Shown here: positions 1,784 to 55,522 of the stretch, piece after piece
Layout: each line of letters opens with the position of its first letter
Position numbering within the stretch: position 1 is the first letter of the stretch
From: an uncultured Candidatus Saccharibacteria bacterium
Lineage (GTDB): Bacteria; Patescibacteriota; Saccharimonadia; Saccharimonadales; JAGQNJ01
DNA length: 64,000 nucleotides
Assembly (NCBI GenBank): GCA_964584895.1
Contig: CAZPAW010000001.1
Coordinates: 337,504 to 401,503 of the forward strand
Reading direction: 5' to 3'
Notes under the pieces: model-generated
The model's database searches: none
Told to the model about the DNA's origin: nothing
The model's input: only the letters and a program-made list of their open reading frames with translations
Position numbers and translations under genes: made by a program

Positions 1784-4144
1784 ATGTATAAATACGTAAA
1801 ATTTTTTGATCAAATATCAATCGATGATATACCGCAAGTTGGCGGAAAAAATGCATCGCTCGGAGAAATGCAAAGTCATCTAGCGCCAAAAGGAGTGAAT
1901 CTGCCTAATGGATTGGCTACGACTGCCGAGAGTTACTATTATTATTTGGATTCTGTCGGGATTAGACACCAGATACAAGATATTTTAAACGGTCTTGATG
2001 TTAAGAATATTAACGATCTAAAAGCTCGAGGCGCAAAGATTAGAAATCTGATAATTAAATCAAAATTGCCGAAAGATTTTGAAGATGAGATTAGACGTGG
2101 CTATAAAGAATTAAGTCAAAAATGCGGACGAAAAAATCTAGTTGTTGCGATTAGGTCATCGGCTACGGCTGAAGATTTGCCTAACGCGTCTTTTGCTGGT
2201 CAACAGGAGACCTACTTGAATATTAAAGGCGAACGCAACGTATTAAAGGCCACGAAGAAGTGTATAGCCTCTTTATTTAATGATCGGGCAATCGTATATC
2301 GGGTAGAGAATAAATTTGATCATATGAAAGTTGCCTTGTCTGTAGGTATTCAGCAGATGGTTGCTGTGCGATCTAGAGCAGCCGGCATCATGTTTACTGT
2401 TGATACTGAGTCGGGATTTGAAAATGCAATTGTTATCAGCTCTATATATGGTATCGGCGAAAATATAGTACAAGGTCGAGTTAGCCCTGATGAGTTTACG
2501 ATTTTTAAACCCACAATGAAAATTATCAAGAAAAAAGTTGGCACCAAAAAAGAAAAAATGATTCCAGCTTTTGGCAGTAAAACAAAAAATATTCCAGTAT
2601 CGAAGGCCGATCAAGAACGATATTCAATAACCGACAAAGAAGCTCTTACGTTGGCGAATTGGGGTATAGCAATAGAAGAACACTATGGTCATCATATGGA
2701 TATTGAGTGGGCGTTAGATGAAGACGATAACAAATTATATGTTGTTCAAGCCCGCGGGGAAACGGTTCAATCCCAGAAGAACATAGACGTAATTGAAGAA
2801 TATCAGTTGAGCGAAAAAGGAAAAATTCTAACAAAAGGCTCGAGTGTTGGTAGCAAGATTGGCGTCGGTAAGGCTAGCAAGATAATGAGCCTTAAAGATA
2901 TCGCGTCATTTAAGGAAGGTGATGTGTTGGTGACCGAAATGACTGATCCAGACTGGGTAGCTATAATGAAAAAAGCTAGCGCAATCGTTACCGATAAAGG
3001 TGGCCGCACTTGTCATGCTGCGATTGTTTCCAGAGAACTAGGTATTCCTTGCGTTGTGGGTACAGCTGACGCGACTAGAAGGATTACCGATAAATCTAGT
3101 GTTACTGTAAGTTGTGCTGAGGGTGACGAAGGCTATGTTTATGAGGGAGAGCTAAAATATATAATCAATAAAACAAATATAAAAAACCTAGCCCGTCCAA
3201 AAACAAAAATAATGATGAACATCGGTTCGCCTGACCATGCTTTTGCCTATTCATTAATACCTAATGACGGTGTAGGCTTGGCCAGAGAGGAATTTATTAT
3301 AGATTCTCATATCAAGATTCATCCAATGGCATTACTAAAATTTGATCAACTCGAGGATCAGCATGCCCGCAGTGAAATAGAGAATCTGACTAGGGGTTAC
3401 AAAGATAAATCAAAGTACTTTATTGATAAACTAGCGGAAGGTATAGCTGTGATTGGGGCTGCGTTTTATCCCAATGATGTCATTATTCGGTTTAGTGATT
3501 TTAAGACGAATGAATACGCAAATTTAATAGGTGGAAAGCAATTTGAACCCCAAGAGAACAACCCAATGATAGGTTGGCGTGGTGCTAGCCGATATTATAG
3601 CGATTCTTACAGAGAAGCATTTAAGTTAGAGTGCTTGGCCTTTTTGAAAGCTAGAAACGAACTCGGCTTAACGAATGTTAAGGCAATGGTGCCTTTTTGT
3701 CGGGATATTACTGAGGCAAAAAATGTAATTGGAGTCATGGAAAGCGCTGGCTTAAAACAGGGCGACAATGGTTTTGAGGTGTACATGATGGTAGAGATTC
3801 CATCCAACGTCATTTTGGCTGAACAGTTTGCCGAGATATTTGATGGCTTTTCGATTGGCAGTAATGATCTTACTCAATTAACGCTTGGCGTAGATCGTGA
3901 TAACAGCACAGTTGCGCATGTTTATGACGAAAATAACGATGTCGTAAAAGCACTTATAACTCAGGCAATAAAAATCGCAAAGCGCACAAAGACAAAAATT
4001 GGTATATGCGGACAGGCACCATCGGATTATCCTCAATTTGCCCGATTCTTAGTAGAGGCGGGGATTGATAGTATATCGTTGGCGCCCGATACAGTGGTAA
4101 AAACGACATTAGATATTAATAAGTTAGAGAAAAAACTGAAGTAA
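1784..4144 (+). CDS. ppsA: phosphoenolpyruvate synthase (pyruvate, water dikinase)
   Basis: 786 aa. N-terminal GGKNASLGEM, phospho-His swivel motif GGRTCHAAIVSRELGIPCVVG, C-terminal PEP-utilising motif SIGSNDLTQL. Confidence 0.95.
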   Translation: MYKYVKFFDQISIDDIPQVGGKNASLGEMQSHLAPKGVNLPNGLATTAESYYYYLDSVGIRHQIQDILNGLDVKNINDLKARGAKIRNLIIKSKLPKDFEDEIRRGYKELSQKCGRKNLVVAIRSSATAEDLPNASFAGQQETYLNIKGERNVLKATKKCIASLFNDRAIVYRVENKFDHMKVALSVGIQQMVAVRSRAAGIMFTVDTESGFENAIVISSIYGIGENIVQGRVSPDEFTIFKPTMKIIKKKVGTKKEKMIPAFGSKTKNIPVSKADQERYSITDKEALTLANWGIAIEEHYGHHMDIEWALDEDDNKLYVVQARGETVQSQKNIDVIEEYQLSEKGKILTKGSSVGSKIGVGKASKIMSLKDIASFKEGDVLVTEMTDPDWVAIMKKASAIVTDKGGRTCHAAIVSRELGIPCVVGTADATRRITDKSSVTVSCAEGDEGYVYEGELKYIINKTNIKNLARPKTKIMMNIGSPDHAFAYSLIPNDGVGLAREEFIIDSHIKIHPMALLKFDQLEDQHARSEIENLTRGYKDKSKYFIDKLAEGIAVIGAAFYPNDVIIRFSDFKTNEYANLIGGKQFEPQENNPMIGWRGASRYYSDSYREAFKLECLAFLKARNELGLTNVKAMVPFCRDITEAKNVIGVMESAGLKQGDNGFEVYMMVEIPSNVILAEQFAEIFDGFSIGSNDLTQLTLGVDRDNSTVAHVYDENNDVVKALITQAIKIAKRTKTKIGICGQAPSDYPQFARFLVEAGIDSISLAPDTVVKTTLDINKLEKKLK

Positions 4145-4227
4145 ATCCAAAATATTGAAAATAAGTGAAAAAATTGTTGATAACCACTAGAGATTATTAG
4201 ATTAAGAATGTAGACTATAAAGCGTAA

Positions 4228-5658
4228 ATGAAATCAATCGTAAACCATCATGCTTCGAACTATCGAAGAACCAAAATTATTGCCACAGTTGGCCCTGCTA
4301 CCAGTGATTATGAAAAGATTGTAGGGATAATTAAAGCTGGTGCAAATGGTCTACGTCTTAATTTTAGTCATGGAGGCAACAACGAGGAATGGAAGCGCGT
4401 TATTGGTTTAATCCGACGGGCATCAGTCGAGTGCGATAAGCCTGTGGCAATTATTCAGGATTTGCAGGGACCAAAAATTCGGTTAGGTGATTTTGATGGT
4501 GTTATTAATGTCGAAAAGCATCAAGAACTTCAATTTAAGTATAATTCTGACTTTGAACGTTCAGGCGTAATTCCTCTGCAGTATGATTTGAGTAAAAAAG
4601 TAAAACGCGGGCAAGAAATGTATTTGTTTGATGGCAAGGTAAAGACAGTTATTACCGCCGTACATGAGAATGGACTAATCCAAGCCGAAGCAAAAAATAA
4701 TGGAATTTTAATAAAGCGAAAAGGCATTAACTTACCTGATACAGATTTTGGTGGAGACATTATCACGCTAAAGGATAGTAAAGATATTGCATTTGGATCT
4801 ACCCAAGACATTGATTATGTGGCTCTTAGCTTTGTTCAAAAAGCTAGCGATGTAGAGAAGTTAAAACGCAAGCTAAAGTCGCTAGGGAGTAAAGCTCGAG
4901 TAATTGCCAAGATAGAAACAAAAGCTGGGGTTGAAGATATTGATGAGATTTTCCAAGAAACAGATGTGGTTATGGTAGCGCGAGGTGATTTAGCTATAGA
5001 AACCAGTCCAGAGTCTGTGCCGGTGATGCAACGTCATATTATTGGCCTAGGGCTTCATTATAAAAAACCTACAATTGTAGCAACACAAATGTTGGCTAGC
5101 ATGACTAAATCATCTGAACCAACTAGAGCAGAGGTTTCAGACGTGGCTACTGCAGTAATTGTTGGGGCTGATAGTGTAATGCTGAGCGAAGAAACTGCAG
5201 TTGGTGAATATCCAATCGAGGCAGTTAAAGTGATGAAAAGGGTTATTCGTTATACAGAAAATAACTCTGATATCAAGGCGACATTTACATCGATTCCTAA
5301 AGACAAAGGTCGACAATATGCAATTTCTAAAGCAGTAATTGACCTAGCAAAGTCAATTGACGCTACTGCCGTAGTTGCAGAAACCAAATCTGGTGCAACG
5401 GCGGTCAATATCGCATCTCAGAGGCCAGATTCTACAATTATTGCTGTAGCTTCAGATAATGTCGTCACTAATCAGTTGGCAATTGTCTATGGAGTAAAAA
5501 GCTATCTGCGACCAGTTGATAAATTTGCAGCGACAAAGCTAACTAACTGGCTTGTAAAAGAAAAAGTGTTGCAAAAAGGGGATGTAATTATTACAGCATC
5601 CGGTAAACATCCTGGAGTCGTAGGTACTACTGACACGATTAAGGTCAGAGTAATATGA
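4228..5658 (+). CDS. pyk: pyruvate kinase
   Basis: 476 aa. RRTKIIATVGPA, NFSHG, MVARGDLAIE, MLSEETAVGEYP motifs. Confidence 0.95.
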   Translation: MKSIVNHHASNYRRTKIIATVGPATSDYEKIVGIIKAGANGLRLNFSHGGNNEEWKRVIGLIRRASVECDKPVAIIQDLQGPKIRLGDFDGVINVEKHQELQFKYNSDFERSGVIPLQYDLSKKVKRGQEMYLFDGKVKTVITAVHENGLIQAEAKNNGILIKRKGINLPDTDFGGDIITLKDSKDIAFGSTQDIDYVALSFVQKASDVEKLKRKLKSLGSKARVIAKIETKAGVEDIDEIFQETDVVMVARGDLAIETSPESVPVMQRHIIGLGLHYKKPTIVATQMLASMTKSSEPTRAEVSDVATAVIVGADSVMLSEETAVGEYPIEAVKVMKRVIRYTENNSDIKATFTSIPKDKGRQYAISKAVIDLAKSIDATAVVAETKSGATAVNIASQRPDSTIIAVASDNVVTNQLAIVYGVKSYLRPVDKFAATKLTNWLVKEKVLQKGDVIITASGKHPGVVGTTDTIKVRVI

Positions 5659-6941
5659 GTTTTCATAAAAAAACAATAAAAGATATTGAGCTATCAAATA
5701 AGACCGTCTTGCTTCGTGTTGATTACAATGTGCCGATGGATGCTCAAAAAATTAGAGAACCGTATCGCATAGAGCAATCTATACCGACTATTGAATATTT
5801 GTTAGGCAAAAAAACTAAAATTGTTATCTGTTCCCATCTTGGTAGACCGACAGCGGATGATAAAAAGAACCTATCGCTAAAACCGGTCGCAGAATTTTTA
5901 TCAAAAAAACTAAAACGTGAAGTTATTTTTATAGATGATTGTGTTGGTGACGATAGGGATGAAATTATTGAAAACCTAAGACCAGGCCAGATTGTATTGT
6001 TAGAAAATCTTCGGTTCTATAAAGAAGAGGAGGAAAATGAATCGTCGTTTGCGAAAGCGCTTGCATCGAAATGTGAAGTTTTTGTACAAGATGCATTTGG
6101 AGTTGTTCATCGCAAACATGCTTCAGTTGATGCAATAACGAAGATTATGCCTTCCGTTGCTGGATTACTTCTTGAAAAAGAAGTGACTATTATCGAACAA
6201 GTTTTATCTAAGCCCGAAAGACCGTTAACCACTATTGTTGGTGGTGCAAAAATTAAAGATAAAATCGATATATTAAAAACGTTCATTAAAACGGCAGATT
6301 TTGTCGCTATTGGGGGCGCTATGGCAAATACTTTCTTAGATGCCAAAGGCGTAGAAGTTGGGAAAAGCTTGGTAGATGATGATGAAATTGACGTCGCAAA
6401 ACAAATTCTACATATGGCAGAACAAGAAGCTAAAATTAGAGACTTCGTTTTTTACTTGCCCCAGGATGTGGTTGTCGCAACTAGTACTGACAAGCTAGCA
6501 AAAACACGAATCGTTGATCTTGACGCCCACGTAATCGCGGATATTGAAAGTTATCCGAGACAAGCTCTTAAGAGTTCGAGAACTATAAATAGCGAAGAAT
6601 TAATATTGGATATTGGCCCATTTTCTGGGGCGTTTATAGCCGGTAATTTACAGTATGCTAAGACTGTAATTTGGAATGGCCTGATGGGCGTAACAGAAAC
6701 TCCATCGGTCAATGGACCGATTGGCCCATTTGCTCACGGTACCGAGCTCATTCTAGATGCACTAAGCGGTCAATATGGACGACGACCCTACAGTCTAATT
6801 GGCGGTGGAGATACTTCGACTTATATAGAACATCGTAATTTGATGAAGTGTTTTAATCATGTATCGACTGGCGGCGGTGCAACTTTAGAATTAATTGCCG
6901 GGAAAAAATTACCAGGCATTGAAGCATTGCAAGACAAATAG
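5655..6941 (+). CDS. pgk: phosphoglycerate kinase
   Basis: 428 aa. VLLRVDYNVP, GGAKIKDKI, STGGGA motifs. 4-nt ATGA overlap with the pyk stop. Confidence 0.95.
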   Translation: MSFHKKTIKDIELSNKTVLLRVDYNVPMDAQKIREPYRIEQSIPTIEYLLGKKTKIVICSHLGRPTADDKKNLSLKPVAEFLSKKLKREVIFIDDCVGDDRDEIIENLRPGQIVLLENLRFYKEEEENESSFAKALASKCEVFVQDAFGVVHRKHASVDAITKIMPSVAGLLLEKEVTIIEQVLSKPERPLTTIVGGAKIKDKIDILKTFIKTADFVAIGGAMANTFLDAKGVEVGKSLVDDDEIDVAKQILHMAEQEAKIRDFVFYLPQDVVVATSTDKLAKTRIVDLDAHVIADIESYPRQALKSSRTINSEELILDIGPFSGAFIAGNLQYAKTVIWNGLMGVTETPSVNGPIGPFAHGTELILDALSGQYGRRPYSLIGGGDTSTYIEHRNLMKCFNHVSTGGGATLELIAGKKLPGIEALQDK

Positions 6942-7172: not shown

Positions 7173-7961
7173 ATGAAACGCACACTTATCGTCGGTAACT
7201 GGAAAATGAATCTGAACGCTAGTCAGTCTAGCCTGTTATTACATCGTTTACATGAGCGAATAAAAATTTATCGGGACATTGAGGTAGTTTTGGCGCCTTC
7301 GATGTTGGTTTTGCAGCCACTGAGCCTTCAAATTGATAGACGAAAGTTTAGGTTAGCCGCTCAAAATGCTCATCCAACAGATGAAGGAGCTTATACTGGC
7401 GAAGTTTCCTTTACTCAATTACAAGAGCTTGTTCATTACACAATTATTGGCCATAGCGAACGTCGAATTCATTTTGGCGAAAGTCTAGATTTAATTAGAG
7501 ATAAAGTTGCAGCTTGTGTAAGGAATAATATCACCCCGATACTCTGCGTAGGAGAAACTAAAACTGAAAGACGAGCAGGAGAGACAAACCAAGTTCTTCA
7601 CGATCAGCTATCAACAGCGCTGGCAGACCTCACTTCAAACGAAGTAGCAAACATGGTGATTGCCTATGAACCGACCTGGGCAATTAGTACTTTTGAGGGC
7701 CAATTAGCAAAACCTTTAGAGGTAAAAAAGGCATTTGATTGCATCCGTAAGCAGGTTGGTGATCTGTATGGCAGAAAAACAGCCAGCAAAGTGAGGCTAT
7801 TGTATGGCGGTAGTGTTGATGAGCACTCTGCTAGAGGTTATTTAGAAATCGAAGGTTGTGACGGTGTATTGGTCGGAGGCGCTAGTCTTAACTATCACAA
7901 ATTTTCTGAGATTGTAAATTCTGCCTATCGTTCAAATAACGAGATTGAAAAGAGTAATTAA
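7173..7961 (+). CDS. tpiA: triosephosphate isomerase
   Basis: 262 aa. VGNWKMN, IIGHSERR, AYEPTWAIST, YGGSV motifs. Confidence 0.95.
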   Translation: MKRTLIVGNWKMNLNASQSSLLLHRLHERIKIYRDIEVVLAPSMLVLQPLSLQIDRRKFRLAAQNAHPTDEGAYTGEVSFTQLQELVHYTIIGHSERRIHFGESLDLIRDKVAACVRNNITPILCVGETKTERRAGETNQVLHDQLSTALADLTSNEVANMVIAYEPTWAISTFEGQLAKPLEVKKAFDCIRKQVGDLYGRKTASKVRLLYGGSVDEHSARGYLEIEGCDGVLVGGASLNYHKFSEIVNSAYRSNNEIEKSN

Positions 7962-8767
7962 TGACTGCAAAATCAAAAGATCCAAGCATAAACGTTAGCT
8001 CTGTGAAATCAATCGATATCACTACAAAAGAGAAAAATGAAATTAAACTAAAGCCAGAAAAAAAGCCTGAAATCATCAAGCCTACAGGCATGATAAAAGA
8101 CATTCACGATAATCCAGATCAAGAAAATAAAGAAATTATTGGTTCGCCTAAACTGGATTTGCCAGAAAATTTAATATCTAATCTAAAACCACCGAGCGAA
8201 AATCGAAAAGTAATAAAACCTACTCCAGCAGTAAATGAAAGCGATTTAGTATCAAAGCCTGCTGATGATTTAACGGGTGATGACAAAACGAGAGATAAAT
8301 CATATATTGATAAAATAAGCGCTGAAGACAGCCACAATACAGAAGAAAAAGATAGTTCTATTGACGAGTCTATGGAGGAGAAAGACGTCACTAATAAAGC
8401 AGATCAAGATGATGATAAAATCAGTGATACAGAAAAAAGCGACCCCAAAAAATCGGATGACGAGCAATCTGATAAGTATGACAATGATGGAATTGTAAAT
8501 GAGCTAGCTGAACAGGCCGCAGATACGAAAAAAAAGAAACAAGAGGATAAAGAGCTCGATGACAGAGCCCAGCGAATAGAAGAACTAATTGAAGCAAAGA
8601 CTTATAATGTTCCGATTGCTCAACTTAGCCATAAAAGGCATACCAGGCTACTTATGATAATTTTGGTGATGCTCTTGGTTTGTGGACTGATTGCTGTCAA
8701 TATTGCTATTGATGCAGGAACTATAGATATTGGGATTGAGCCGTTAACTGACTTTATTCCAAATTAA
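7961..8767 (+). CDS. hypothetical acidic low-complexity protein with C-terminal TM anchor
   Basis: 268 aa. The ATG shares one base with the tpiA TAA stop (TAATG). K/D/E/S-rich body, single C-terminal TM (LLMIILVMLLVCGLIAVNIAI). Confidence 0.6.
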   Translation: MTAKSKDPSINVSSVKSIDITTKEKNEIKLKPEKKPEIIKPTGMIKDIHDNPDQENKEIIGSPKLDLPENLISNLKPPSENRKVIKPTPAVNESDLVSKPADDLTGDDKTRDKSYIDKISAEDSHNTEEKDSSIDESMEEKDVTNKADQDDDKISDTEKSDPKKSDDEQSDKYDNDGIVNELAEQAADTKKKKQEDKELDDRAQRIEELIEAKTYNVPIAQLSHKRHTRLLMIILVMLLVCGLIAVNIAIDAGTIDIGIEPLTDFIPN

Positions 8768-8811
8768 ATAACAACATCATCATTGCTTATGGTAGGTTAC
8801 AATAGTTAGTC

Positions 8812-10980
8812 GTGGTTGAGGAATTTCTTAAAGACTTAAATACAGAACAGCAAAGAGCAGTAAAATCTACTGAAGGTCCTTTATTGATTTTGGCGGGTGC
8901 CGGTAGTGGCAAAACAAAAACACTTACAAATCGAATCGCCTATATCATTGATAAGAACCTCGCTACTCCCTACAACATTTTAGCTGTAACCTTTACCAAT
9001 AAAGCGGCAGAAGAGATGCGGCAACGAGTCGCGGTATTGCTTGGGCATCGATCAGATGACAGGACTTTTATGCCTTACATGGGAACGTTTCACAGTATCT
9101 GTGTTCGATTACTACGTCAGGACGGAGATCATATTGGCGTTCCCAAAAATTTTGTGATTTTTGATGAATTAGATAGAGTCGCTTGCGTCAAAAAGATTTC
9201 AAAAGAATTATCGATCGATGAAAAAAGTTTTCCGGCCCGCAAGCTATCAGGTGTGATTTCGAGCGCAAAAAATGATTTGGTTACGCCTGATGAAATGATC
9301 TCATCAGCTAACAGTCCAACCCAAAAAGAAGCGGCTCGCGTCTATCCTATTTATCAGAAATATTTGATTGACGCTATGGCGCTTGATTTTGACGATTTGA
9401 TTGCAAAAACCGTAAAGCTATTATCAGAAAATGATGAAGTTAGACAGAAGTGGCAAAATCAATTTAAATACGTGATGATTGACGAGTATCAGGATACTAA
9501 CGTTGCGCAATATAAGTTAATAAAACTACTGATAAATGAACGAAATAATATTGCTGTAGTAGGCGATGATTGGCAATCGATTTATTCATGGAGAGGCGCT
9601 GATTTTAAGAATATTCTAAATTTTGAAAAAGACTACAAAAACTGTCAGGTTATAAAATTAGAACAAAATTATCGAAGCACAAAACATATATTAGATGCTG
9701 CACATGGCGTAATTGCAAAAAATGCTCATAGATCTACTAAAAAACTTTGGACAGATTTGGGCGATGGTTTGCCTGTGCAGATAATACCGGTTCATTCTGA
9801 ACGAAGTGAGGGTGAGGCGATTGTTAGAGTGATTCGAAATCAAGTTGACGGAAGGACAAGACAATACAAAGATTTTGCAGTGCTTTACAGAACAAACGCA
9901 CAAAGCCGTTCGCTTGAAGAGGTTTTTGTACATTATGGTATACCTTATAGAATCGTTGGCGGTGTTAGATTTTATGACCGCAAAGAGATTAAAGATATTA
10001 TTGCTTACCTGAGATTAATTTATCAACCAGAAGATATAATTAGTTTTGAAAGAGTTGTAAATATTCCAGCTAGAGGTGTTGGGGCAAAATCACTCATTAA
10101 TTTTAATTCATGGAGATTAGACAATAGAGTCTCTCTGGATGATGCTTTATCGAACGTTGTCAATTGTAGCGCCATAACAGCCAAAGCTAGAAAGGGATTG
10201 GCGGATCTTGCCGACATACTGCAGTCACTTCGCACGGTAATGTCAGACAGTAGTGTATCTGGACTAGTTGATGCACTTGTGCGACGGCTGGATTATATAA
10301 ATTATCTTGATGATGGGACTATTCAGGCACAGTCAAGACAAGAAAATGTCAAAGAATTAATGTCGGTAGCCTCAGAATACGAGACTTTAGGCTTGGATGG
10401 CTTTTTGGAAGAAGTGTCGTTACTGACTAGTGCTGACAATAATGACAGCCAAAAAGACTGTGTTACTTTAATGACTTTGCATGGGGCTAAAGGGCTGGAA
10501 TTTCCCGTAGTGTTTATGGCTGGTATGGAGGAAACAATTTTTCCACATAGCAGAGCGCTTTATGATGCGACCGAAATGGAAGAAGAGCGACGATTGTGCT
10601 ATGTCGGTATGACTCGTGCAAAACAAGAGCTATATCTGTTATTTGCATCCAGTCGAATGCTATATGGTGGAGTGCAACACAACCCTCCTAGTCGATTTTT
10701 GTCTGATGCTAATCCGAAGTTGATGAATACTCATCAATCTCCTATGTTCAATAGTACTTATGAGAGTGAATATGCTCCTAGGCCAAAAGAGGCTATGAGC
10801 GTCTCGAGCGAGCCTCGCTATGTGCCTGATCTAGATATTGGCGACGGAATTAATCATTCTGTTTTTGGAAAAGGGATAGTAGTTCACATGGATGGAGATA
10901 TTGCGACGATTAGCTTTAATGGACGAGGTACAAAGCAATTAGATATCAGTCTCGCGCCTTTAGAAAAGATCGACAGCTAA
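8812..10980 (+). CDS. uvrD: ATP-dependent DNA helicase, UvrD/PcrA family
   Basis: 722 aa, GTG start. Helicase motifs AGAGSGKT, DEYQDTN, EQNYRST, TLHGAKGLEFPVVF, YVGMTRAK. Confidence 0.9.
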   Translation: MVEEFLKDLNTEQQRAVKSTEGPLLILAGAGSGKTKTLTNRIAYIIDKNLATPYNILAVTFTNKAAEEMRQRVAVLLGHRSDDRTFMPYMGTFHSICVRLLRQDGDHIGVPKNFVIFDELDRVACVKKISKELSIDEKSFPARKLSGVISSAKNDLVTPDEMISSANSPTQKEAARVYPIYQKYLIDAMALDFDDLIAKTVKLLSENDEVRQKWQNQFKYVMIDEYQDTNVAQYKLIKLLINERNNIAVVGDDWQSIYSWRGADFKNILNFEKDYKNCQVIKLEQNYRSTKHILDAAHGVIAKNAHRSTKKLWTDLGDGLPVQIIPVHSERSEGEAIVRVIRNQVDGRTRQYKDFAVLYRTNAQSRSLEEVFVHYGIPYRIVGGVRFYDRKEIKDIIAYLRLIYQPEDIISFERVVNIPARGVGAKSLINFNSWRLDNRVSLDDALSNVVNCSAITAKARKGLADLADILQSLRTVMSDSSVSGLVDALVRRLDYINYLDDGTIQAQSRQENVKELMSVASEYETLGLDGFLEEVSLLTSADNNDSQKDCVTLMTLHGAKGLEFPVVFMAGMEETIFPHSRALYDATEMEEERRLCYVGMTRAKQELYLLFASSRMLYGGVQHNPPSRFLSDANPKLMNTHQSPMFNSTYESEYAPRPKEAMSVSSEPRYVPDLDIGDGINHSVFGKGIVVHMDGDIATISFNGRGTKQLDISLAPLEKIDS

Positions 10981-12653: not shown

Positions 12654-13178
12654 ATGGCTCGACATTATATAGACAGAGGAACAAATGAAACAGAGGCTAG
12701 TGTTATGGCGATGGTTGCCTTAAACCCAGGTCAATACTTAATGAGTGACATTGCGAAAGAACTCGGTAAAATTCCTAGCTCAATAAGCAGCGCGGCGAGA
12801 GGCTTAGCTAGCAGGGGATGGTTAGAATCTGGGAATTCAAAGACTAAAAGACCAAATATTGCTTATAAAACACTTGTTCCAACGGATGAATTTTGGTCAG
12901 ATTACAAGAGAGTTGTCCAAGTTATCCACGAGTTTTTTGAATCAGATAAAAAACTAGAGCCGGTTTTTACAAACGCCATTACGGCTAAGCATGAGCTTGG
13001 CGATCTGAAGCCCGAATCCCAAGAGTATCTTGACCGACGAGTCGTGTACTTAGGAGGGATAGCAGTACTGGGTGAGCATGTCGATCTACATATAGCCACA
13101 TCTGGAGTGTGGTTTGCATATGAGCCAGGATGGCGCGCAATCGTTGACGTTCAGGTATCTCAAATTCCTGCTTCATAA
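12654..13178 (+). CDS. hypothetical protein, possible MarR-like winged-helix regulator
   Basis: 174 aa. The N-terminal segment LMSDIAKELGKIPSSISSAARGLASRGWLESG looks like an HTH recognition helix plus wing. Assignment is tentative. Confidence 0.45.
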   Translation: MARHYIDRGTNETEASVMAMVALNPGQYLMSDIAKELGKIPSSISSAARGLASRGWLESGNSKTKRPNIAYKTLVPTDEFWSDYKRVVQVIHEFFESDKKLEPVFTNAITAKHELGDLKPESQEYLDRRVVYLGGIAVLGEHVDLHIATSGVWFAYEPGWRAIVDVQVSQIPAS

Positions 13179-13202
13179 GTTTTTTTGCTAAGCTGTTGAT
13201 AT

Positions 13203-13994
13203 ATGGGCGCAACAATACCGAATAAATTTCTGGGGCAGCATTGGCTGAAGGATAAATATTCTTTGCAGGCGATGATTGAGAGCGCTGAGGTCAATACTAG
13301 CGATAATGTGCTTGAGATTGGGCCCGGAACAGGTCTTTTAACAGATCAATTATTAGATGCTGGTGCACAAGTTACAGCGTTAGAATTTGATCATACTTTG
13401 GCCCAGCAATTGCTGTTTAAATATGCCAGCAATAAGAATGTGCAGGTAATTGAGGGCGATATTCGTAAGTTTGATTTTGCTAGCTTGCCAGCAAACTTTA
13501 AAATTGTTGCCAACATCCCTTATTATTTGACGGCGAATTTGTTTAGAAAGCTGATTGATTCTGATAAAAAACCAGATGTAGCTTCATTGTTAGTACAAAA
13601 AGAAGTTGCCGAGCGAGCTAGCGCCGAGGCTGGCAAATTGTCATTTGTAGCTGTGGCTTTGCAGGTCTTTTATCAGATAAGGGCAGGGGAGGTAGTACTG
13701 GCACATTTGTTTGAACCACCACCCAAAATCGACTCTCAAATTCTTGTGCTAGAACGGAGAGAAACGCCACAGATTGATGTTGACAAAATCGATAATTTTT
13801 TAACACTAGTAAAGGCTGGCTTTGATCAACCTAGAAAAAAACTGATTTCTAATCTGTTGAGAGAAGTAAAAGATGAAAAAGAAGTCTTACTTCAGATATT
13901 TGATGGGCTAGAGATCGATTCTAGCGTTCGGGCTCAAGAATTATCAATTGACCAGTGGAAGCAACTATTTGCAAAGCTACAGAAAAATTTGTAG
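13203..13994 (+). CDS. rsmA: 16S rRNA (adenine1518/1519-N6)-dimethyltransferase
   Basis: 263 aa. LGQHWL, SAM-binding LEIGPGTGLLT, NIPYY motifs. Confidence 0.9.
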   Translation: MGATIPNKFLGQHWLKDKYSLQAMIESAEVNTSDNVLEIGPGTGLLTDQLLDAGAQVTALEFDHTLAQQLLFKYASNKNVQVIEGDIRKFDFASLPANFKIVANIPYYLTANLFRKLIDSDKKPDVASLLVQKEVAERASAEAGKLSFVAVALQVFYQIRAGEVVLAHLFEPPPKIDSQILVLERRETPQIDVDKIDNFLTLVKAGFDQPRKKLISNLLREVKDEKEVLLQIFDGLEIDSSVRAQELSIDQWKQLFAKLQKNL

Positions 13995-14115
13995 GAGTCC
14001 CCTACCCTAACTGTTGTAAAAATAAAACATATGATTTTTGTAGTTCTGGAGACTTCGATATAGGACTTTTCGATACTTAAGGTATTTGCAAATGTACGGC
14101 TTCCCTGTCTTAATA

Positions 14116-14144
14116 TTGCTAATGTTTACGGATTTTGTTATAAT
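14116..14144 (+). promoter_or_regulatory. putative ssrA promoter
   Basis: TTGCTA (14116-21), 17-nt spacer, TATAAT (14139-44), 10 nt upstream of the mature tmRNA 5' end. Confidence 0.5.
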
Positions 14145-14154
14145 AATCTTTGAT

Positions 14155-14541
14155 GGGGCTGAAATTATGCTCGACGTAGGACTTTATCAGTTAGATCGGC
14201 AGGTCGCTTGTCAGCGTATAGGCAACTATTTTAACTGCAAATGTTAAAAAACAGCTAGTAGCAGCTTTTGGAAATTTCCAAATGCCTAAACTAGCGCCCG
14301 CTTTAGTTTAACTAAAGCCACGCGGTAGAGTGACATCAGATAACATTACCAACGTGTCATATCATCTGGTTGCCTAAGTTTCGTTATTCGAAAACTTAGT
14401 AAGACAATAGGATATGCGAGACTTAATTTTTTTGTCTGTTTATAGATTGGGTTTCTAAGAAAAAGTAAAATAGACTATGCCTGTAGAAGACTAACAAAGA
14501 TAATCCAGCGGACCGGAGTGCAATTCTCCGCAGCTCCACCA
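14155..14541 (+). ncRNA. ssrA: transfer-messenger RNA (tmRNA)
   Basis: 5' GGGGCTGAAATTATGCTCGACG. The 3' end GGACCGGAGTGCAATTCTCCGCAGCTCCACCA gives a T-arm plus an acceptor stem pairing GGGGCUG/CAGCUCC with a G3:U pair and a terminal ACCA. An internal tag-like ORF runs GCA AAT GTT ... CTA GCG CCC GCT TTA GTT TAA (tentatively ...KLAPALV*, resume codon uncertain). Confidence 0.85.
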
Positions 14542-14574
14542 AAAGGGACTTTTCAGTTTTTGAAAGGTCTTTTT
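14533..14574 (+). repeat. 42-bp direct repeat, copy 1 (attL-like; last 9 nt of ssrA plus terminator)
   Basis: GCTCCACCAAAAGGGACTTTTCAGTTTTTGAAAGGTCTTTTT is identical to 17002-17043. Confidence 0.85.
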
Positions 14575-14575
14575 T
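14547..14575 (+). terminator. rho-independent terminator of ssrA
   Basis: 9-bp stem GACTTTTCA / TGAAAGGTC (one G:U), 5-nt loop, then a T-run. Confidence 0.7.
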
Positions 14576-14734
14576 ATTATTGATGGTAATCGATGTTCGA
14601 TAGTGCAATGCGACAATCAAGAGAACAAACGAGTTGCCAGCATTCCATCTAGCCAAATATTTGAATCGTAAAGATGATCTTAATGATTTATTCTACTAAC
14701 TAAGATTCAAATTCCCTCGGCATAATAAACAATA

Positions 14735-15886
14735 TTATGTGAGTATTTGTTCTATGGTTACTGTAGTTCGGCGTTTAGGATCTATGAGAATGTAGTTATT
14801 TTCTAACACCGCTTTACCGACACGCCAAGCAGCCTCTCCGCTGTATTCTCCATTGTCTGTTTCTACGTGATTTACTTGATCGTCCGAATCAGGCAGACTA
14901 TCGATAAAAGCTTGACGGGCTCGTCGTCGCTTGGATTCGGCTACAAAAGCTGCAAACTTCTCAGGGTCTTTTATTACATTGGGGGATTTTGTGTGTCGTC
15001 GCTTGGATTCTGCTACAAAAGCTGCAAACTTATCAGGATCTACAATTGTACCTTCCGAAGCACTTGGCGGATCTTCAGTTTCAGCTGTTTTCGGCGTACG
15101 GTCGTATGTATCGCGGAGAACATCTAGAGATTTACTAACGATTTGCTGAATACGTTGGTGGGTTAGCTTATGATCTAGACCAATTTCTTTAAAAGTCTTG
15201 GGCGCTCCGGAAAGACCAAAGTAAGAAAAAAGAATTTTAATGCTACGGTCAGGCAATTCGGCATCATTGATGAGTTTAACTATAGTTTCGCGTGCCTCAA
15301 CAACGTCTAATTCTGTTGATGCCCGACTGTCTGGTGCGTCGTGTTGCCACTCGAGCGGGGCGAGTTCTTCGGCTATATCCACGGCAAGGTCTGTTTGTTG
15401 ATCTTCATCAACATATCCTTCATAACTTGGGATTTGTTCGTTGTATGTTATATTTGGCAACGGAAGGGTCCCAAGAAATGCTTTTTCGAAAGCATGAACC
15501 GGGAGAGGCCATGGCATGTCTTCTATTGCGGCATATCGAACCATAGCATTAGTGATGCGCGGAAGAGCTAGCGTTGATAAAGCCCCCTGATCTGGTTTGA
15601 AGTCTGCTAATGTACTAGGCAATGCAAAGAAACCGGTTTGTACGAAATCTTCGAATTCTGCAAGGCTACCATTACTTCTTGCGAAACCGACTTTTATTGC
15701 ATTTAACTTTATTAAGTGGTTGTTTGTTTTTAGCGCACCAATGACTAATCTTGCACCATGGTAAAGAAGACCTAAATTCTCACCACATTCTCTCATTAAA
15801 TCAGTCGGGATAACAGGGGTTTCTCTATCGGGATTTGCAAGCGTGCCAGGCCCAATTTGTTCTCTTATCGCCTCATCAATTTCCAT
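14735..15886 (-). CDS. sigma-70 family-like protein with C-terminal tandem repeat
   Basis: 383 aa. Region-2-like FEDFVQTGFFAL...FKPDQGA..STLALPRITNAMVRY. Region-4 HTH-like LPDRSIKILFSYFGLSGAPKTFKEIGLDHKLTHQRIQQIVSKSLDVLR. C-terminal duplicated DP[DE]KFAAFVAESKRR. Confidence 0.7.
   Translation of the reverse strand: MEIDEAIREQIGPGTLANPDRETPVIPTDLMRECGENLGLLYHGARLVIGALKTNNHLIKLNAIKVGFARSNGSLAEFEDFVQTGFFALPSTLADFKPDQGALSTLALPRITNAMVRYAAIEDMPWPLPVHAFEKAFLGTLPLPNITYNEQIPSYEGYVDEDQQTDLAVDIAEELAPLEWQHDAPDSRASTELDVVEARETIVKLINDAELPDRSIKILFSYFGLSGAPKTFKEIGLDHKLTHQRIQQIVSKSLDVLRDTYDRTPKTAETEDPPSASEGTIVDPDKFAAFVAESKRRHTKSPNVIKDPEKFAAFVAESKRRRARQAFIDSLPDSDDQVNHVETDNGEYSGEAAWRVGKAVLENNYILIDPKRRTTVTIEQILT
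14924..15040 (-). repeat. 72-nt-period tandem duplication inside the sigma-like gene
   Basis: TCGTCGCTTGGATTC[G/T]GCTACAAAAGCTGCAAACTT[C/A]TCAGG[G/A]TC at 14924-14968 and 14996-15040, in frame (24 aa). Confidence 0.85.
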
Positions 15887-16061
15887 AACGAAACAAATTA
15901 TACACTAAAACGGATAATACCGCAAAAATTTAGTATTGCATAATTTTCTATTTATAAGGGCTTTATTAGAAAACCATTACCTATTTGTATTTCGTCATAA
16001 TTAAGGTTGGTTTTTTGAAGCTGTTCAACACAATCTATTCATTAAGTGTGAAGAATTGTTG

Positions 16062-16724
16062 TTATTGTGGATTAATAGCGATAACACCAATAAAATGTCT
16101 TAAAACTGGTTCACTGCCAAGATTTTTACTTGACCGATGCCAAACATTGTTGTCAATTCTGGCAACGGCTAGTTCTGGTGGTTGATCGATTGTAAGTAAG
16201 CCTTCGTTTAAAGCTTCATCTATGATTACATTTTCATTTGAAGATGTTGATCTGGATGCTCTCAGAAAAGCTCTCGCCCAGCGTCCTTTAAGTACACCGC
16301 TAACGATTTCGGTGGGCAAAACATCCGAGACGATATAGGCTTTTGCATCTTCGGAATAACCCATATCTAAATGCCATTTTAGAGAAAGTTGCCTCAAACT
16401 TGGAGCGACAAGCCCTTTTGCGTAGTATAAGGTTGTTTTATCTTGTGCGGTTTTTGGTAAGTGTTCATCGGACCCTGTTACAGCTATAATTGCTTCGCGA
16501 ACTATTTCGAGGCTGTGATCATCATCAATGGTTTCTACAATTCCACGAGCTGTAATTGCTTTTAGTGGAGGCTCATTTCTGACTTCAAGCGTGGTTTGAA
16601 CGCTTTCGTGACGGCAAAATCCGTATTGTTCATTCAGAGGATCTAAAGGCAAAAAGACTTCAGGAGAAATAGTGCGCTTTATGACTGCTGCTGGCAAAAC
16701 TACACGCTCAAACATTATAGACAA
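16062..16724 (-). CDS. hypothetical protein (islet cargo)
   Basis: 220-aa ORF co-oriented with the sigma-like gene. No recognisable motif. Confidence 0.5.
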   Translation of the reverse strand: MSIMFERVVLPAAVIKRTISPEVFLPLDPLNEQYGFCRHESVQTTLEVRNEPPLKAITARGIVETIDDDHSLEIVREAIIAVTGSDEHLPKTAQDKTTLYYAKGLVAPSLRQLSLKWHLDMGYSEDAKAYIVSDVLPTEIVSGVLKGRWARAFLRASRSTSSNENVIIDEALNEGLLTIDQPPELAVARIDNNVWHRSSKNLGSEPVLRHFIGVIAINPQ

Positions 16725-17001
16725 ATTATACCATATATATAAAAATAAAACAAATTAATATTTGCATTCCATATCGGAATAATGTCTTAGACAATGTCAT
16801 ATATATCATTATGATTATGCTATTTTAGGGTGTGTGTTGATGTCAAAACGATGAGCCTCGGACAGTTGATTCGTCTTGACCTTGCCGAAGGAGAGGATAA
16901 TGAACGACATTTTTTATTGTTGTACTTAGTTCAATCGCCCTAGAGTAAATACCGCCATCTTCGAATTTCGGCAAAGATGAGGGGTGAACTCTTTTCGAGG
17001 T

Positions 17002-17043
17002 GCTCCACCAAAAGGGACTTTTCAGTTTTTGAAAGGTCTTTTT
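17002..17043 (+). repeat. 42-bp direct repeat, copy 2 (attR-like; includes a second copy of the ssrA terminator hairpin)
   Basis: Identical to 14533-14574. The sequence upstream of it is unrelated to the tmRNA body. Confidence 0.85.
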
Positions 17044-17117
17044 GTTTTGCCATTCTTTAATACATACCAAATAACACGCATTGCATAGTTTGACGACCAT
17101 AAATATAATAATCTTAA

Positions 17118-17399
17118 ATGAGTGAGCACGCTGCATACTGGTATATAACCGAGCGAGCAAGTATAGAAGAGCTGGAGGTCCTGGATGCAAGGATATGGCC
17201 GACTGACTTTGATACTTACATGGAGGGAAGCGGTAATTTATACTTAAAGTATGATCCCGTCGCTTCTATGGAAATGCTGGAACAGACGTGGCGTCAAGGA
17301 GTTTGGCTAGGAGGAGTTATCCACGCTCAGTTTAAGCAACAAACCGGTCACGAAGAACCAGCAGTGCTTTGGTGGTGCAAAGATTTCGATCAACTATAA
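17118..17399 (+). CDS. hypothetical protein
   Basis: 93-aa Trp-rich ORF starting 75 nt after repeat copy 2. Confidence 0.45.
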   Translation: MSEHAAYWYITERASIEELEVLDARIWPTDFDTYMEGSGNLYLKYDPVASMEMLEQTWRQGVWLGGVIHAQFKQQTGHEEPAVLWWCKDFDQL

Positions 17400-17498
17400 A
17401 CTTAGTTTAGCGTAAGCGTTTTATGCCGTATTTTTATATTGCTTGTGGTTTTGGATGAATTAGCGCTATACTTTAGATAAATTAATTGCGGGGTAAGT

Positions 17499-55015: not shown

Positions 55016-55522
55016 CTAAAAAATGCAGTTGATGTCGTCTTCATCGAACGTAGAGTTGATGGCGACATCGGCGGCAAACTGAGATGATGCTATAAAGTCA
55101 TGGAGTTCGCCAAATTCTGCCAATTGGCGATGTGCCTTTATTGCGGCTTTTTGTTGGCGGGTAGAAAGCCCAGCGGTTATTCCAGTCAATCCTTGAATGG
55201 GCGGTGGATCTGTTACTAAATCAATGTAACATGATAGTTTGACTGTGCAACTAGCACATACGCCTCGAGCGACTTCTACTCCTTTGGCGTTGCCGGGGCC
55301 CGGGTGCATAATTTTAGGGTTTGTTAACTTTCTGCAAAGAGCGTCTTTTTTCCATCTGGAATCTATGGTTAACGGGTTTACTTTTATTGACATTGTACTG
55401 CCTCTTGCTGGGGATGGCGGGGCTGTTCGTTCAGGGATATCACTGATAGTGAATGCTTCGTCAATAATTTCAAATTCTGCCATGATAAAACAGATAATAT
55501 AACTATCTAGGACTTTGTTCAA
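55016..55522 (-). CDS. WhiB-like (Wbl) Fe-S cluster-type regulator homologue
   Basis: 168 aa (TTG 55522; alternative ATG 55483). W..DALC-x25-CASCTVKLSC gives the C-Xn-C-X2-C-X5-C spacing of WhiB proteins, followed by G[I]TAG.S..Q resembling the GVWGG turn. Confidence 0.6.
   Translation of the reverse strand: MNKVLDSYIICFIMAEFEIIDEAFTISDIPERTAPPSPARGSTMSIKVNPLTIDSRWKKDALCRKLTNPKIMHPGPGNAKGVEVARGVCASCTVKLSCYIDLVTDPPPIQGLTGITAGLSTRQQKAAIKAHRQLAEFGELHDFIASSQFAADVAINSTFDEDDINCIF

Follow-up and report, generated by a model that had tools for sequence, protein, structure and literature searches.

A 2.4-kb islet downstream of ssrA in a Candidatus Saccharibacteria genome as a probable remnant of a serine-recombinase element

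In the genome of an uncultured Candidatus Saccharibacteria bacterium, the gene for the transfer-messenger RNA (tmRNA), ssrA, is followed by a 2.4-kb islet that lies between two copies of a 42-bp sequence and holds two genes, one for a sigma-70-like factor and one for an orphan protein (ORFan). We analyzed this islet within a stretch of 64,000 nucleotides (64 kb) of assembly GCA_964584895.1 (contig CAZPAW010000001.1, positions 337,504 to 401,503), which we call the window and by whose coordinates the features are listed in Table 1. The repeat (GCTCCACCAAAAGGGACTTTTCAGTTTTTGAAAGGTCTTTTT, hereafter the core) is direct and perfect, with 0 mismatches between its two plus-strand copies, as an initial annotation made from the sequence alone had reported. 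The same annotation had placed the end of the tmRNA at the start of the repeat and a terminator behind it, and this holds as well: because the tmRNA recognized by Rfam ends at 14541, copy 1 opens with the 9-nt 3′ terminus of the tmRNA (GCTCCACCA), which is followed by AAA, a hairpin (GGGACTTTTC / GAAAGGTC) and a T-run, and a terminator scan detected the ssrA terminator at this copy. Within the window there is no third copy of the core at up to 3 mismatches (the chance expectation is 0), and a 17-nt sub-core likewise occurs only twice. The suspicion that the second copy might be one of many copies of a generic terminator, in the manner of dispersed terminators or repetitive extragenic palindromic (REP)-like sequences unlinked to ssrA, does not fit a sequence found twice in 64 kb, each time with a tmRNA end. 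ARAGORN detected no tmRNA in the window, and annotation pipelines based on it may miss the gene in this lineage, where the Rfam match reaches 90 bits.

Table 1. Features of the ssrA locus, in coordinates of the 64-kb window.
Feature	Positions	Strand	Remarks
ssrA (tmRNA), integration target	14155-14541	+	Rfam RF00023, 90 bits, model positions 1-374, full length
Repeat copy 1 (attL position)	14533-14574	+	tmRNA end GCTCCACCA, ssrA terminator hairpin and T-run
Sigma cassette, 1.46-kb presence/absence segment	14575-16037	-	begins directly after the terminator T-run
Sigma-70-like gene	14735-15886	-	Pfam, NCBIfam and PHROG matches
ORFan, conserved ssrA neighbour in the clade	16062-16724	-	217 aa from ATG 16715 (start of all homologues)
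Block seen only in this species	about 16838-17461		~620 bp; holds relic tail, copy 2 and orf93
Relic of large serine recombinase C-terminal tail (P arm of attP)	16904-17001	-	in-frame stops (asterisks), ...LVEHLEKSSPLIFAEIRRWRYLL*GD*
Repeat copy 2 (attR position)	17002-17043	+	displaced tmRNA 3′ end and terminator hairpin
orf93, small open reading frame on the outer flank of copy 2, species-restricted	17118-17399	+	one homologue cluster, same species

The repeat is not an artefact of assembly, since both of its junctions recur in independent assemblies (the contigs and loci used for comparison carry the prefix L). Contig L001 spans the tmRNA, copy 1 and the sigma side, and contig L023 spans the left flank, copy 2 and orf93, while the Logan unitigs L005 and L024 end exactly where a 42-bp repeat would break a k=31 graph.

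Both genes between the repeats lie on the minus strand, whereas most long open reading frames (ORFs) of the window, 40 of 48, are on the plus strand. The initial annotation had proposed profile searches of the two cargo proteins, and these placed one of them. The sigma-70-like protein matches Pfam region 2 with 26.7 bits (cut-off 24) and region 4 with 23.4 bits, just below the cut-off of 24.1, as well as TIGR02937 (E 1.7e-10) and PHROG 351 (E 1.3e-10), and we count it as a member of the sigma-70 family by its regions 2 and 4. Its C-terminal extension contains an in-frame 72-nt tandem duplication (window 14923-14969 and 14995-15041, encoding DP[DE]KFAAFVAESKRR twice), which is conserved in L001, L003 and L005. 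The ORFan has no family match above threshold in Pfam, PHROGs, PADLOC or NCBIfam, its one weak PHROG match having an E of 0.027, and an AlphaFold model built from a 4-sequence alignment reaches a predicted local distance difference test score (pLDDT) of 30, too low for the model to be of use. Among 5.8 billion proteins, the homologues form 2 clusters for the sigma factor and 4 clusters for the ORFan, all of them encoded at this same locus.

The key to the repeat came from a scan of JGI metagenomes with the first 22 nt of the core, which returned eight contigs. On one of them, L027, the core agrees with that of the window at 41 of 44 positions and lies inside the 3′ end of a long serine recombinase ORF, not within a tmRNA. 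The encoded protein has the catalytic motif RVSTPEQ and the Pfam domains Resolvase, Recombinase and Zn_ribbon_recom; its best NCBIfam match is XisF, with an E of 7e-21 that is far under the family cut-off, and the PDB holds no sequence relative of it. When this recombinase was compared with the 64 kb by tblastn, its residues 487-533 matched the minus strand from 17044 to 16904 with 64% identity (E 2.6e-11), and elsewhere only the 14 residues encoded by copy 1 were found. The frame reads KDLSKTEKSLLVEHLEKSSPLIFAEIRRWRYLL*GD*TKY in the window, the asterisks being stops, and KDLSIAEKSLLVEHLENNAPLIFDEIRRWRYLLWDDYIEY in L027. A pseudogenized recombinase tail of 47 codons therefore extends over copy 2 and the adjoining 98 nt on its left. 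A phmmer search of 1.84 billion proteins with 38 aa of the relic found seven short tail-bearing ORFs (E 2e-6 to 3e-4). At the DNA level, L027 matches window positions 16935-17043, that is copy 2 and 67 nt to its left, with 88% identity over 109 nt, and the DNA flanking and entering copy 2 is altogether 86-89% identical to L027 and to two further Saccharibacteria-like contigs, L034 and L037 (blastn matches of 72-109 nt, of which 9-42 nt belong to the core). Other DNA similarity to the window is absent from L027, restricted to the tmRNA 3′ end in L034, and weak in L037 (64-72%, in the tmRNA, trehalase and pcrA genes). That the junction is alike in contigs which otherwise barely resemble the window is the mark of a mobile element. 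The initial annotation was right, then, to see in the repeat the scar of site-specific recombination at ssrA: copy 2 is joined to a serine recombinase tail, which marks attR in intact relatives. Its statement that the islet carries a sigma-70-like gene and an ORFan but no recombinase stands for an intact gene, of which there is none in the window (30 ORFs were compared with Pfam, in addition to the tblastn search with the L027 protein), and fails for the relic. A relic of the recombinase body was sought to the right of copy 2 and of copy 1 and was not detected at either, and an alignment, by hand, of the first ~25 nt after copy 2 with the element-side flank was too weak to be used.

The element family to which the relic points was defined from L034, L037 and L027 (L036 was too short to be informative). 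In L034, a 534-aa recombinase gene (7539-9143, plus strand) overlaps by 65 nt the end of a tmRNA gene on the opposite strand (9079-9456), and its product is 31% identical to the L027 protein (E 1e-72). A separate ORF encoding the tail (1723-2067) lies 7.3 kb off, beyond the cargo. Gene body and tail ORF read the sequence GGTGGAGC in the same phase, so recombination there would fuse body and tail in frame, as seen in L027. The L034 cargo includes an HTH (helix-turn-helix) regulator, a cyclase and a DUF488 protein, and L034 also carries a tyrosine recombinase gene (5781-6704, Phage_integrase, 307 aa) besides the serine recombinase. L037 has the same synteny as the window (pcrA, G5 protein, rsmA, ssrA); here a 569-aa recombinase gene (12920-14629) overlaps the tmRNA (14505-14907) and the tail (7841-8125) is 6.5 kb distant. 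In both contigs the recombinase modules have the same orientation relative to ssrA as the cargo genes of the window, and the two ends of the element share only GCTCCACCA, with differing terminators. Because the body stands at ssrA and the tail kilobases away in the same phase, as L034, L037 and L027 together indicate, the recombinase gene spans attP and would be split by integration. The family recombinases are ~535-570 aa long, and their last ~55 codons cross, antisense, a terminator hairpin, a copy of the tmRNA 3′ end (GCTCCACCA) and the conserved tail, whose peptide reads LVEHLEKSSPLIFEEIRRWRYLLWDDY...LVP; the first three residues (LVE) are encoded by the tmRNA-end copy.

Partial copies are found on other Saccharibacteria-like contigs. 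Remnants of recombinase bodies stand beside ssrA in L030, L032 and L026. In L025, tail and core are present with ssrA 1.7 kb upstream and no recombinase between them, which makes this contig an independent analogue of the window. L028 has tail and core with no adjacent tmRNA, defence-like cargo on the inner side and ABC-transporter genes outside; the inner side (3756-5396) holds three small genes that, judged by eye only, resemble toxin-antitoxin or abortive-infection genes (DUF4065/Panacea-like N-terminus, AbiV-like). In L027, an IS110-family transposase gene (2098-3114) is separated by ~0.5 kb from the end of the recombinase gene that carries the tail. In viral contigs, no relative of the L027 recombinase and no copy of the 22-nt core was found, so a phage nature of the element is without evidence. 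Set against the family, the window has the tail (LVEHLE..SPLIF.EI.RWRYLL) in frame with the reverse complement of GCTCCACCA at attR, with stops. It departs from the family in having the sigma cassette where a reverse-strand recombinase body should read into the tmRNA 3′ end, and in an end identity of 42 bp, compared with 9 bp in L034 and L037 and 12 bp in L025. From these short repeats, GCTCCACCA would be the crossover block.

Together, these observations are best explained, with a probability that we put at roughly 60%, if the locus is a composite, recombinase-less and possibly cis-mobilizable remnant of an ssrA-specific serine-recombinase element, one of a family found in Saccharibacteria. 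Recombination within GCTCCACCA would insert such an element after ssrA, bringing the gene body and an element-borne ssrA terminator beside the tmRNA (attL). The tail would remain at the far end (attR), together with the old terminator and the tmRNA end that had been displaced. The window would have kept both junctions, copy 1 as attL and copy 2, with its stop-bearing tail, as attR, whereas the recombinase body would have been deleted, so that the islet could not move by itself. The interval between the repeats would then be composite cargo, made of the sigma cassette and the ORFan, and the sister species would have kept the ORFan while the attR segment was lost or never present there. Measured by what is expected of islands in tRNA and tmRNA genes (Islander-type), the locus has an intact target gene at one end, a full-length tmRNA, and a displaced 3′ target fragment in direct orientation at the other (42/42); in place of an integrase gene inside there is only the 47-codon relic at attR, and no empty site was found among the loci compared. 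Of the three readings that the initial annotation had offered, a decayed island is thus the one we prefer, and there is no need to postulate a new type of minimal cargo element.

The terminators provide a further indication of where copy 2 comes from. Both window copies have the loop CAGTTTTTG and the L027 element copy has CAGCAATTG, whereas the ssrA loop of four sister species is CGACATT[A/C]G, from which the window differs by a compensated stem change. Since the loop of copy 2 is like that of L027 and unlike that of the sisters, copy 2 looks element-type and not like a displaced native terminator. A junction between tandem elements would have a tail to the left and an element terminator to the right, as in L027. 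The 42-bp identity is probably due to element-type terminators at both ends, which repeated integration in one lineage would produce, or to homogenization. As for the age of the relic, the window and the conspecific contig L023 depart from the family consensus in one common substitution (E to A), while a stop codon is private to the window and two changes (S to R and F to V) are private to L023; the tail was therefore pseudogenized shortly before the strains split, which is recent relative to the divergence of the species. Between these two strains the 212 nt to the left of copy 2 are 92.5% identical, copy 2 is identical (42/42) and the 787 nt to its right are ~97.7% identical, a jump in divergence at copy 2 with a chi-square of ~11 by our own arithmetic.

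The nearest genomes are Candidatus Saccharibacteria metagenome-assembled genomes, and a comparison of their loci by blastn and by eye (a look-up of the exact RsmA protein gave no contig) distinguishes four arrangements. In the first (a), shared by the window, L005/L024 and L023, ssrA and the core are followed by sigma, ORFan, relic, the second core, orf93 and a membrane-protein gene. The second (b), in L003/L004, has ssrA, core, sigma, ORFan and membrane gene, with no second core. The third (c), in four sister species (the L007 group, L013, L014 and L033), has ssrA, core, ORFan and membrane gene, with neither sigma nor second core. The fourth (d), in L001/L002, is 98.5% identical to the window and arranged as in (a), except that 16991-17290, including copy 2, is replaced by 7.8 kb. 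Although the identity of L003 and L014 is 97.9% across the ORFan and membrane genes, only L003 of the two has a 1459-bp segment with the sigma gene (window 14579-16037), which is therefore a presence/absence cassette of its own. The cassette is absent with the same junctions from L014, L013, L007 and L033 and present in L003/L004. The idea that the 2.4 kb entered an otherwise empty site as one unit is not supported, because the third arrangement has the ORFan by ssrA without a second repeat, and the second has both genes without it, the sigma gene coming and going separately.

Copy 2 lies in a ~620-bp block that interrupts a promoter-like stretch which, in the sister species, is single upstream of the membrane-protein gene. 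The limits of the block were set with intergenic sequences from the window, L003, L007, L013 and L014 that were aligned by hand (the blastn boundaries are 16833 and 17679). A 30-bp promoter duplication on its two sides, which might have told insertion from deletion, was looked for, and 9 of 11 positions matched, in the -35-like part only. The protein of orf93, on the outer side of the block, has no match in PADLOC, PHROGs, NCBIfam or Pfam, and the gene would either belong to the host flank or be left over from an older element.

Two of the compared loci have insertions of their own. The replacement in L001/L002 (L001:325-8123 and L002:1-694) begins 11 nt before the expected copy 2, takes the place of the first 173 nt of orf93, and contains VirB4-, VirD4-, M23 peptidase-, PNPOx-, aldo-keto-reductase- and glycosidase-like genes; a homologue of the VirB4-like protein (~41% amino acid identity) occurs in the distant Saccharibacteria contig L017. 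A conjugative element that entered at the displaced core and has since decayed could account for these 7.8 kb. In L003, the tmRNA gene (3650-4198) has an extra ~165 nt (3725-3891) near its last pseudoknots, absent from L014, whose adjacent 112 nt are 100% identical. Rfam matches of this insert are only weak, to plant miRNA-precursor models, and suggest a long hairpin; an intervening sequence is one possible explanation of the insert, a small insertion element another.

Synonymous divergence between the window and the sister species, calculated gene by gene with the Nei-Gojobori method in a script of our own, sets the two cargo genes apart from their surroundings. The proportion of synonymous differences (pS) is at or near saturation in ten backbone genes (0.69-0.84) and intermediate in rsmA, just upstream of ssrA (13203-13994; 0.55-0.65). 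The ORFan has a pS of 0.37-0.42, a synonymous distance (dS) of ~0.5 and a ratio of nonsynonymous to synonymous divergence (dN/dS) of ~0.26; for the sigma gene relative to L003, the values are 0.127, 0.14 and ~0.5. In a profile of 100-nt segments against L003, identity is ~92% from 14575 to ~16090 and ~80% thereafter, so that the tract is the same cassette as in the L003/L014 indel. Because these pS values are far below the near-saturated backbone, we conclude that sigma and ORFan passed between species when the backbones had long been separate, each at a different time. The position that the ORFan shares across species fits a site-specific or ssrA-anchored mobile segment and is therefore no evidence of vertical residence, and with the low pS of the cargo the main objection to an island is removed. 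The initial annotation had held that its proposal would fall if all relatives had the same genes without repeats; half of this has come about, in that four sister species share the ORFan, and L003/L004 both genes, without the second repeat, yet pS shows that the shared position is not an old vertical inheritance. The identity between L003 and L014 also changes across ssrA, from 98% on one flank to 89% on the other, which, with the intermediate pS of rsmA, suggests tracts of homologous recombination anchored on the conserved tmRNA gene.

Several points weigh against the interpretation of the locus as an element remnant. The first is that neither an empty site (ssrA, core, orf93) nor a circular junction was seen, although no dedicated search for them was made; as defined here, the attB junction would join the tmRNA 3′ end and the 42-mer to GTTTTGCC / GTTTTGCCATTC, and the circle junction would run from ...CTTTTCGAGGT (GAGGT) through the 42-mer to TATTATTGATGG. 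Second, the ORFan stands at the same place in four sister species that have no attR, and the 620-bp block with attR could equally be a later insertion, and without an outgroup its polarity (deletion in the sisters or insertion here) is equally parsimonious either way. Third, intact elements have a 9-bp repeat and differing terminators, and an identity of 42 bp is not what a single simple integration predicts. Fourth, the sigma cassette starts after the T-run, outside GCTCCACCA, and the terminator of L003 is that of the sigma-less L014; sigma may therefore have moved by homologous or illegitimate recombination, without a recombinase. Fifth, a degenerate third core or tail between sigma and ORFan, which tandem integration would predict, was not significant (p 0.03-0.08, window-wide nulls), and the two best alignments were in conflicting registers. 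Sixth, homologues of sigma and ORFan were sought in all other copies of the element and none was found, and the same is true of orf93. Finally, the argument from exchange relies on pS values of single genes.

In a rival explanation, the repeat would not delimit one element, sigma and ORFan would be ordinary accessory genes of a recombination hot spot anchored on the highly conserved ssrA, and the 620-bp block would be a leftover of another copy of the element. It would have come later into the spacer between ORFan and membrane gene, for instance through homologous recombination with a different strain, or would represent the attP region, still unrecombined, of an element inserted otherwise. 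We regard this as unlikely. In its favour, the sister species have a contiguous and well-formed promoter-like stretch at the position of the block, the spot is variable in its own right, as the replacement of 16991-17290 in L001/L002 illustrates, the boundaries of the sigma cassette are at T-runs and not at the crossover block, and the element-type loop of copy 2 is expected of an attP-type site. In addition, the relic tail has a young appearance, since it agrees with the family consensus at 22 of the first 23 residues, while the ORFan proteins are 76% identical between species. However, it would take a coincidence for the relic, directly oriented, to sit precisely where the minus-strand block gives way to the plus-strand backbone, the place expected of attR, and a further coincidence, or conversion, to make copy 2 identical to the resident ssrA end at 42 of 42 positions, species-specific loop included. 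Moreover, no mechanism for inserting an attP-type fragment at such a place is known, and the low synonymous divergence marks both inner genes as mobile.

A wider proposal, which we put forward as distinctly doubtful, is that the ssrA 3′ end in Saccharibacteria serves as an accretion platform, where the elements of one serine-recombinase family insert repeatedly, possibly at the displaced copy too, and where leftovers without a recombinase, like this islet, can be exchanged in trans. If this were true, the perfectly conserved second 42-mer would be a live secondary att site through which these epibionts with their tiny genomes would swap regulators such as the sigma factor across species, and the recombinase would regulate itself through the re-tailing of its gene upon integration.

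Mobilization in trans, which the initial annotation had considered alongside decay, seems improbable. Here the islet would be a live cis-mobilizable element or satellite whose attL and attR are used by a recombinase, with a directionality factor, encoded elsewhere in the genome or by a co-resident element, and whose activity keeps the 42-bp copies identical. Copy 2 is indeed perfect in two strains although the adjacent relic DNA differs by 7.5%, both cargo genes have crossed species boundaries, family elements that we take to be active exist (L034 and L037), and integrase-less ssrA islands thought to be mobilized by accretion are known in Dehalococcoides (PMC3146451). Yet the window offers no recombinase, the P arm beside copy 2 is decaying, with strain differences within 20 nt of the core, the sister species have the ORFan without attR, and no excision junction was seen. 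Finally, a chance segmental duplication, or the re-use of a good terminator with no recombinase involved, would suit a repeat that is mostly terminator hairpin and stands between divergent genes, where a terminator might serve to insulate transcription, but it is very improbable given that the repeat includes 9 nt of tmRNA, has two copies only in 64 kb, and is fused in frame with a recombinase tail relic that is the attR mark of intact elements in unrelated contigs.

Elsewhere in the window, a 168-aa ORF at 55016-55522 (minus strand) has a WhiB domain (PF02467, E 5e-5). WhiB regulators are typical of Actinobacteria, the usual hosts of Saccharibacteria.

To our knowledge, integrative elements are poorly documented in Saccharibacteria and in other bacteria of the candidate phyla radiation (CPR), whose reduced genomes are often called poor in mobile DNA, and the literature that we searched described neither serine-recombinase elements nor islands at ssrA for Saccharibacteria. 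What the window contains is itself no more than a remnant, either dead or dependent. It led, nonetheless, to an ssrA-targeting family of compact design, in which the end of the recombinase gene would be at once attachment site, spare tmRNA 3′ end and spare terminator, and to a stretch downstream of ssrA where a sigma factor and an orphan gene are traded between species with near-saturated backbones. The core and the tail motif make a simple signature with which such islands could be found and delimited in CPR metagenome bins, and in bacteria that are so hard to manipulate, a cognate recombinase might be developed into a tool for site-specific integration.

The family shares with XisF, CcrB and the large serine recombinases of phages a catalytic domain, a recombinase domain, a zinc ribbon and a coiled coil in the same order; it differs from them in a target and a tail motif specific to the saccharibacterial family, and in having no close sequence relative in the PDB. 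Integrases whose genes contain their own attP are known among tyrosine recombinases, such as those of the SSV1-type viruses of Sulfolobus and intP of Mx8 in Myxococcus. There, as would be the case here, integration splits or re-tails the integrase gene, which is full-length only in the excised form or at the junction of tandem copies. In contrast, the enzyme is a large serine recombinase here, the exchange would concern only its last ~40 codons, and the opposite strand of the coding sequence provides a replacement tmRNA 3′ end and terminator.

The window also resembles the cis-mobilizable elements (CIMEs) described in the ICESt literature on Streptococcus thermophilus, which derive from integrative and conjugative elements (ICEs) or integrative and mobilizable elements (IMEs) by loss of the recombination and transfer modules. 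It has attL and attR on its two sides and neither integrase nor transfer genes between them; a deletion origin and movement by a related element through accretion would complete the likeness, the mobility being a matter of analogy. It differs in that its P arm is already decaying and in that its content is composite, with two parts of different ages. The CIME concept has also been applied to the ssrA islands of Dehalococcoides (PMC3146451), which seem to be the closest precedent for the locus, as compared here by description. In those islands, described in 2011, insertion occurs in the T-loop (333/334) and leaves a 20-bp repeat of the ssrA end, tandem arrays are formed, and the integration module comprises DsiB and DsiA (PMC3146451). 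The window shows neither the T-loop insertion nor the 20-bp repeat nor a DsiB/DsiA module, its crossover block being the terminal 9 nt (GCTCCACCA), and neither L034 nor L037 has a DsiA-like second recombinase or a ParB/Mom module. The host phylum is another one, and a recombinase ORF that crosses the att site and is split by integration, as proposed here, is unreported in that study. On the other hand, DsiB, a serine recombinase of ~540 aa, is encoded beside attL on the reverse strand, just as the recombinase is in the saccharibacterial family. About half of the islands in Dehalococcoides (15 of 31) likewise have no integration module and were interpreted as cis-mobilizable or fixed, older islands being thought to become fixed while losing their signatures (PMC3146451), a course that would also describe the islet behind the saccharibacterial ssrA.

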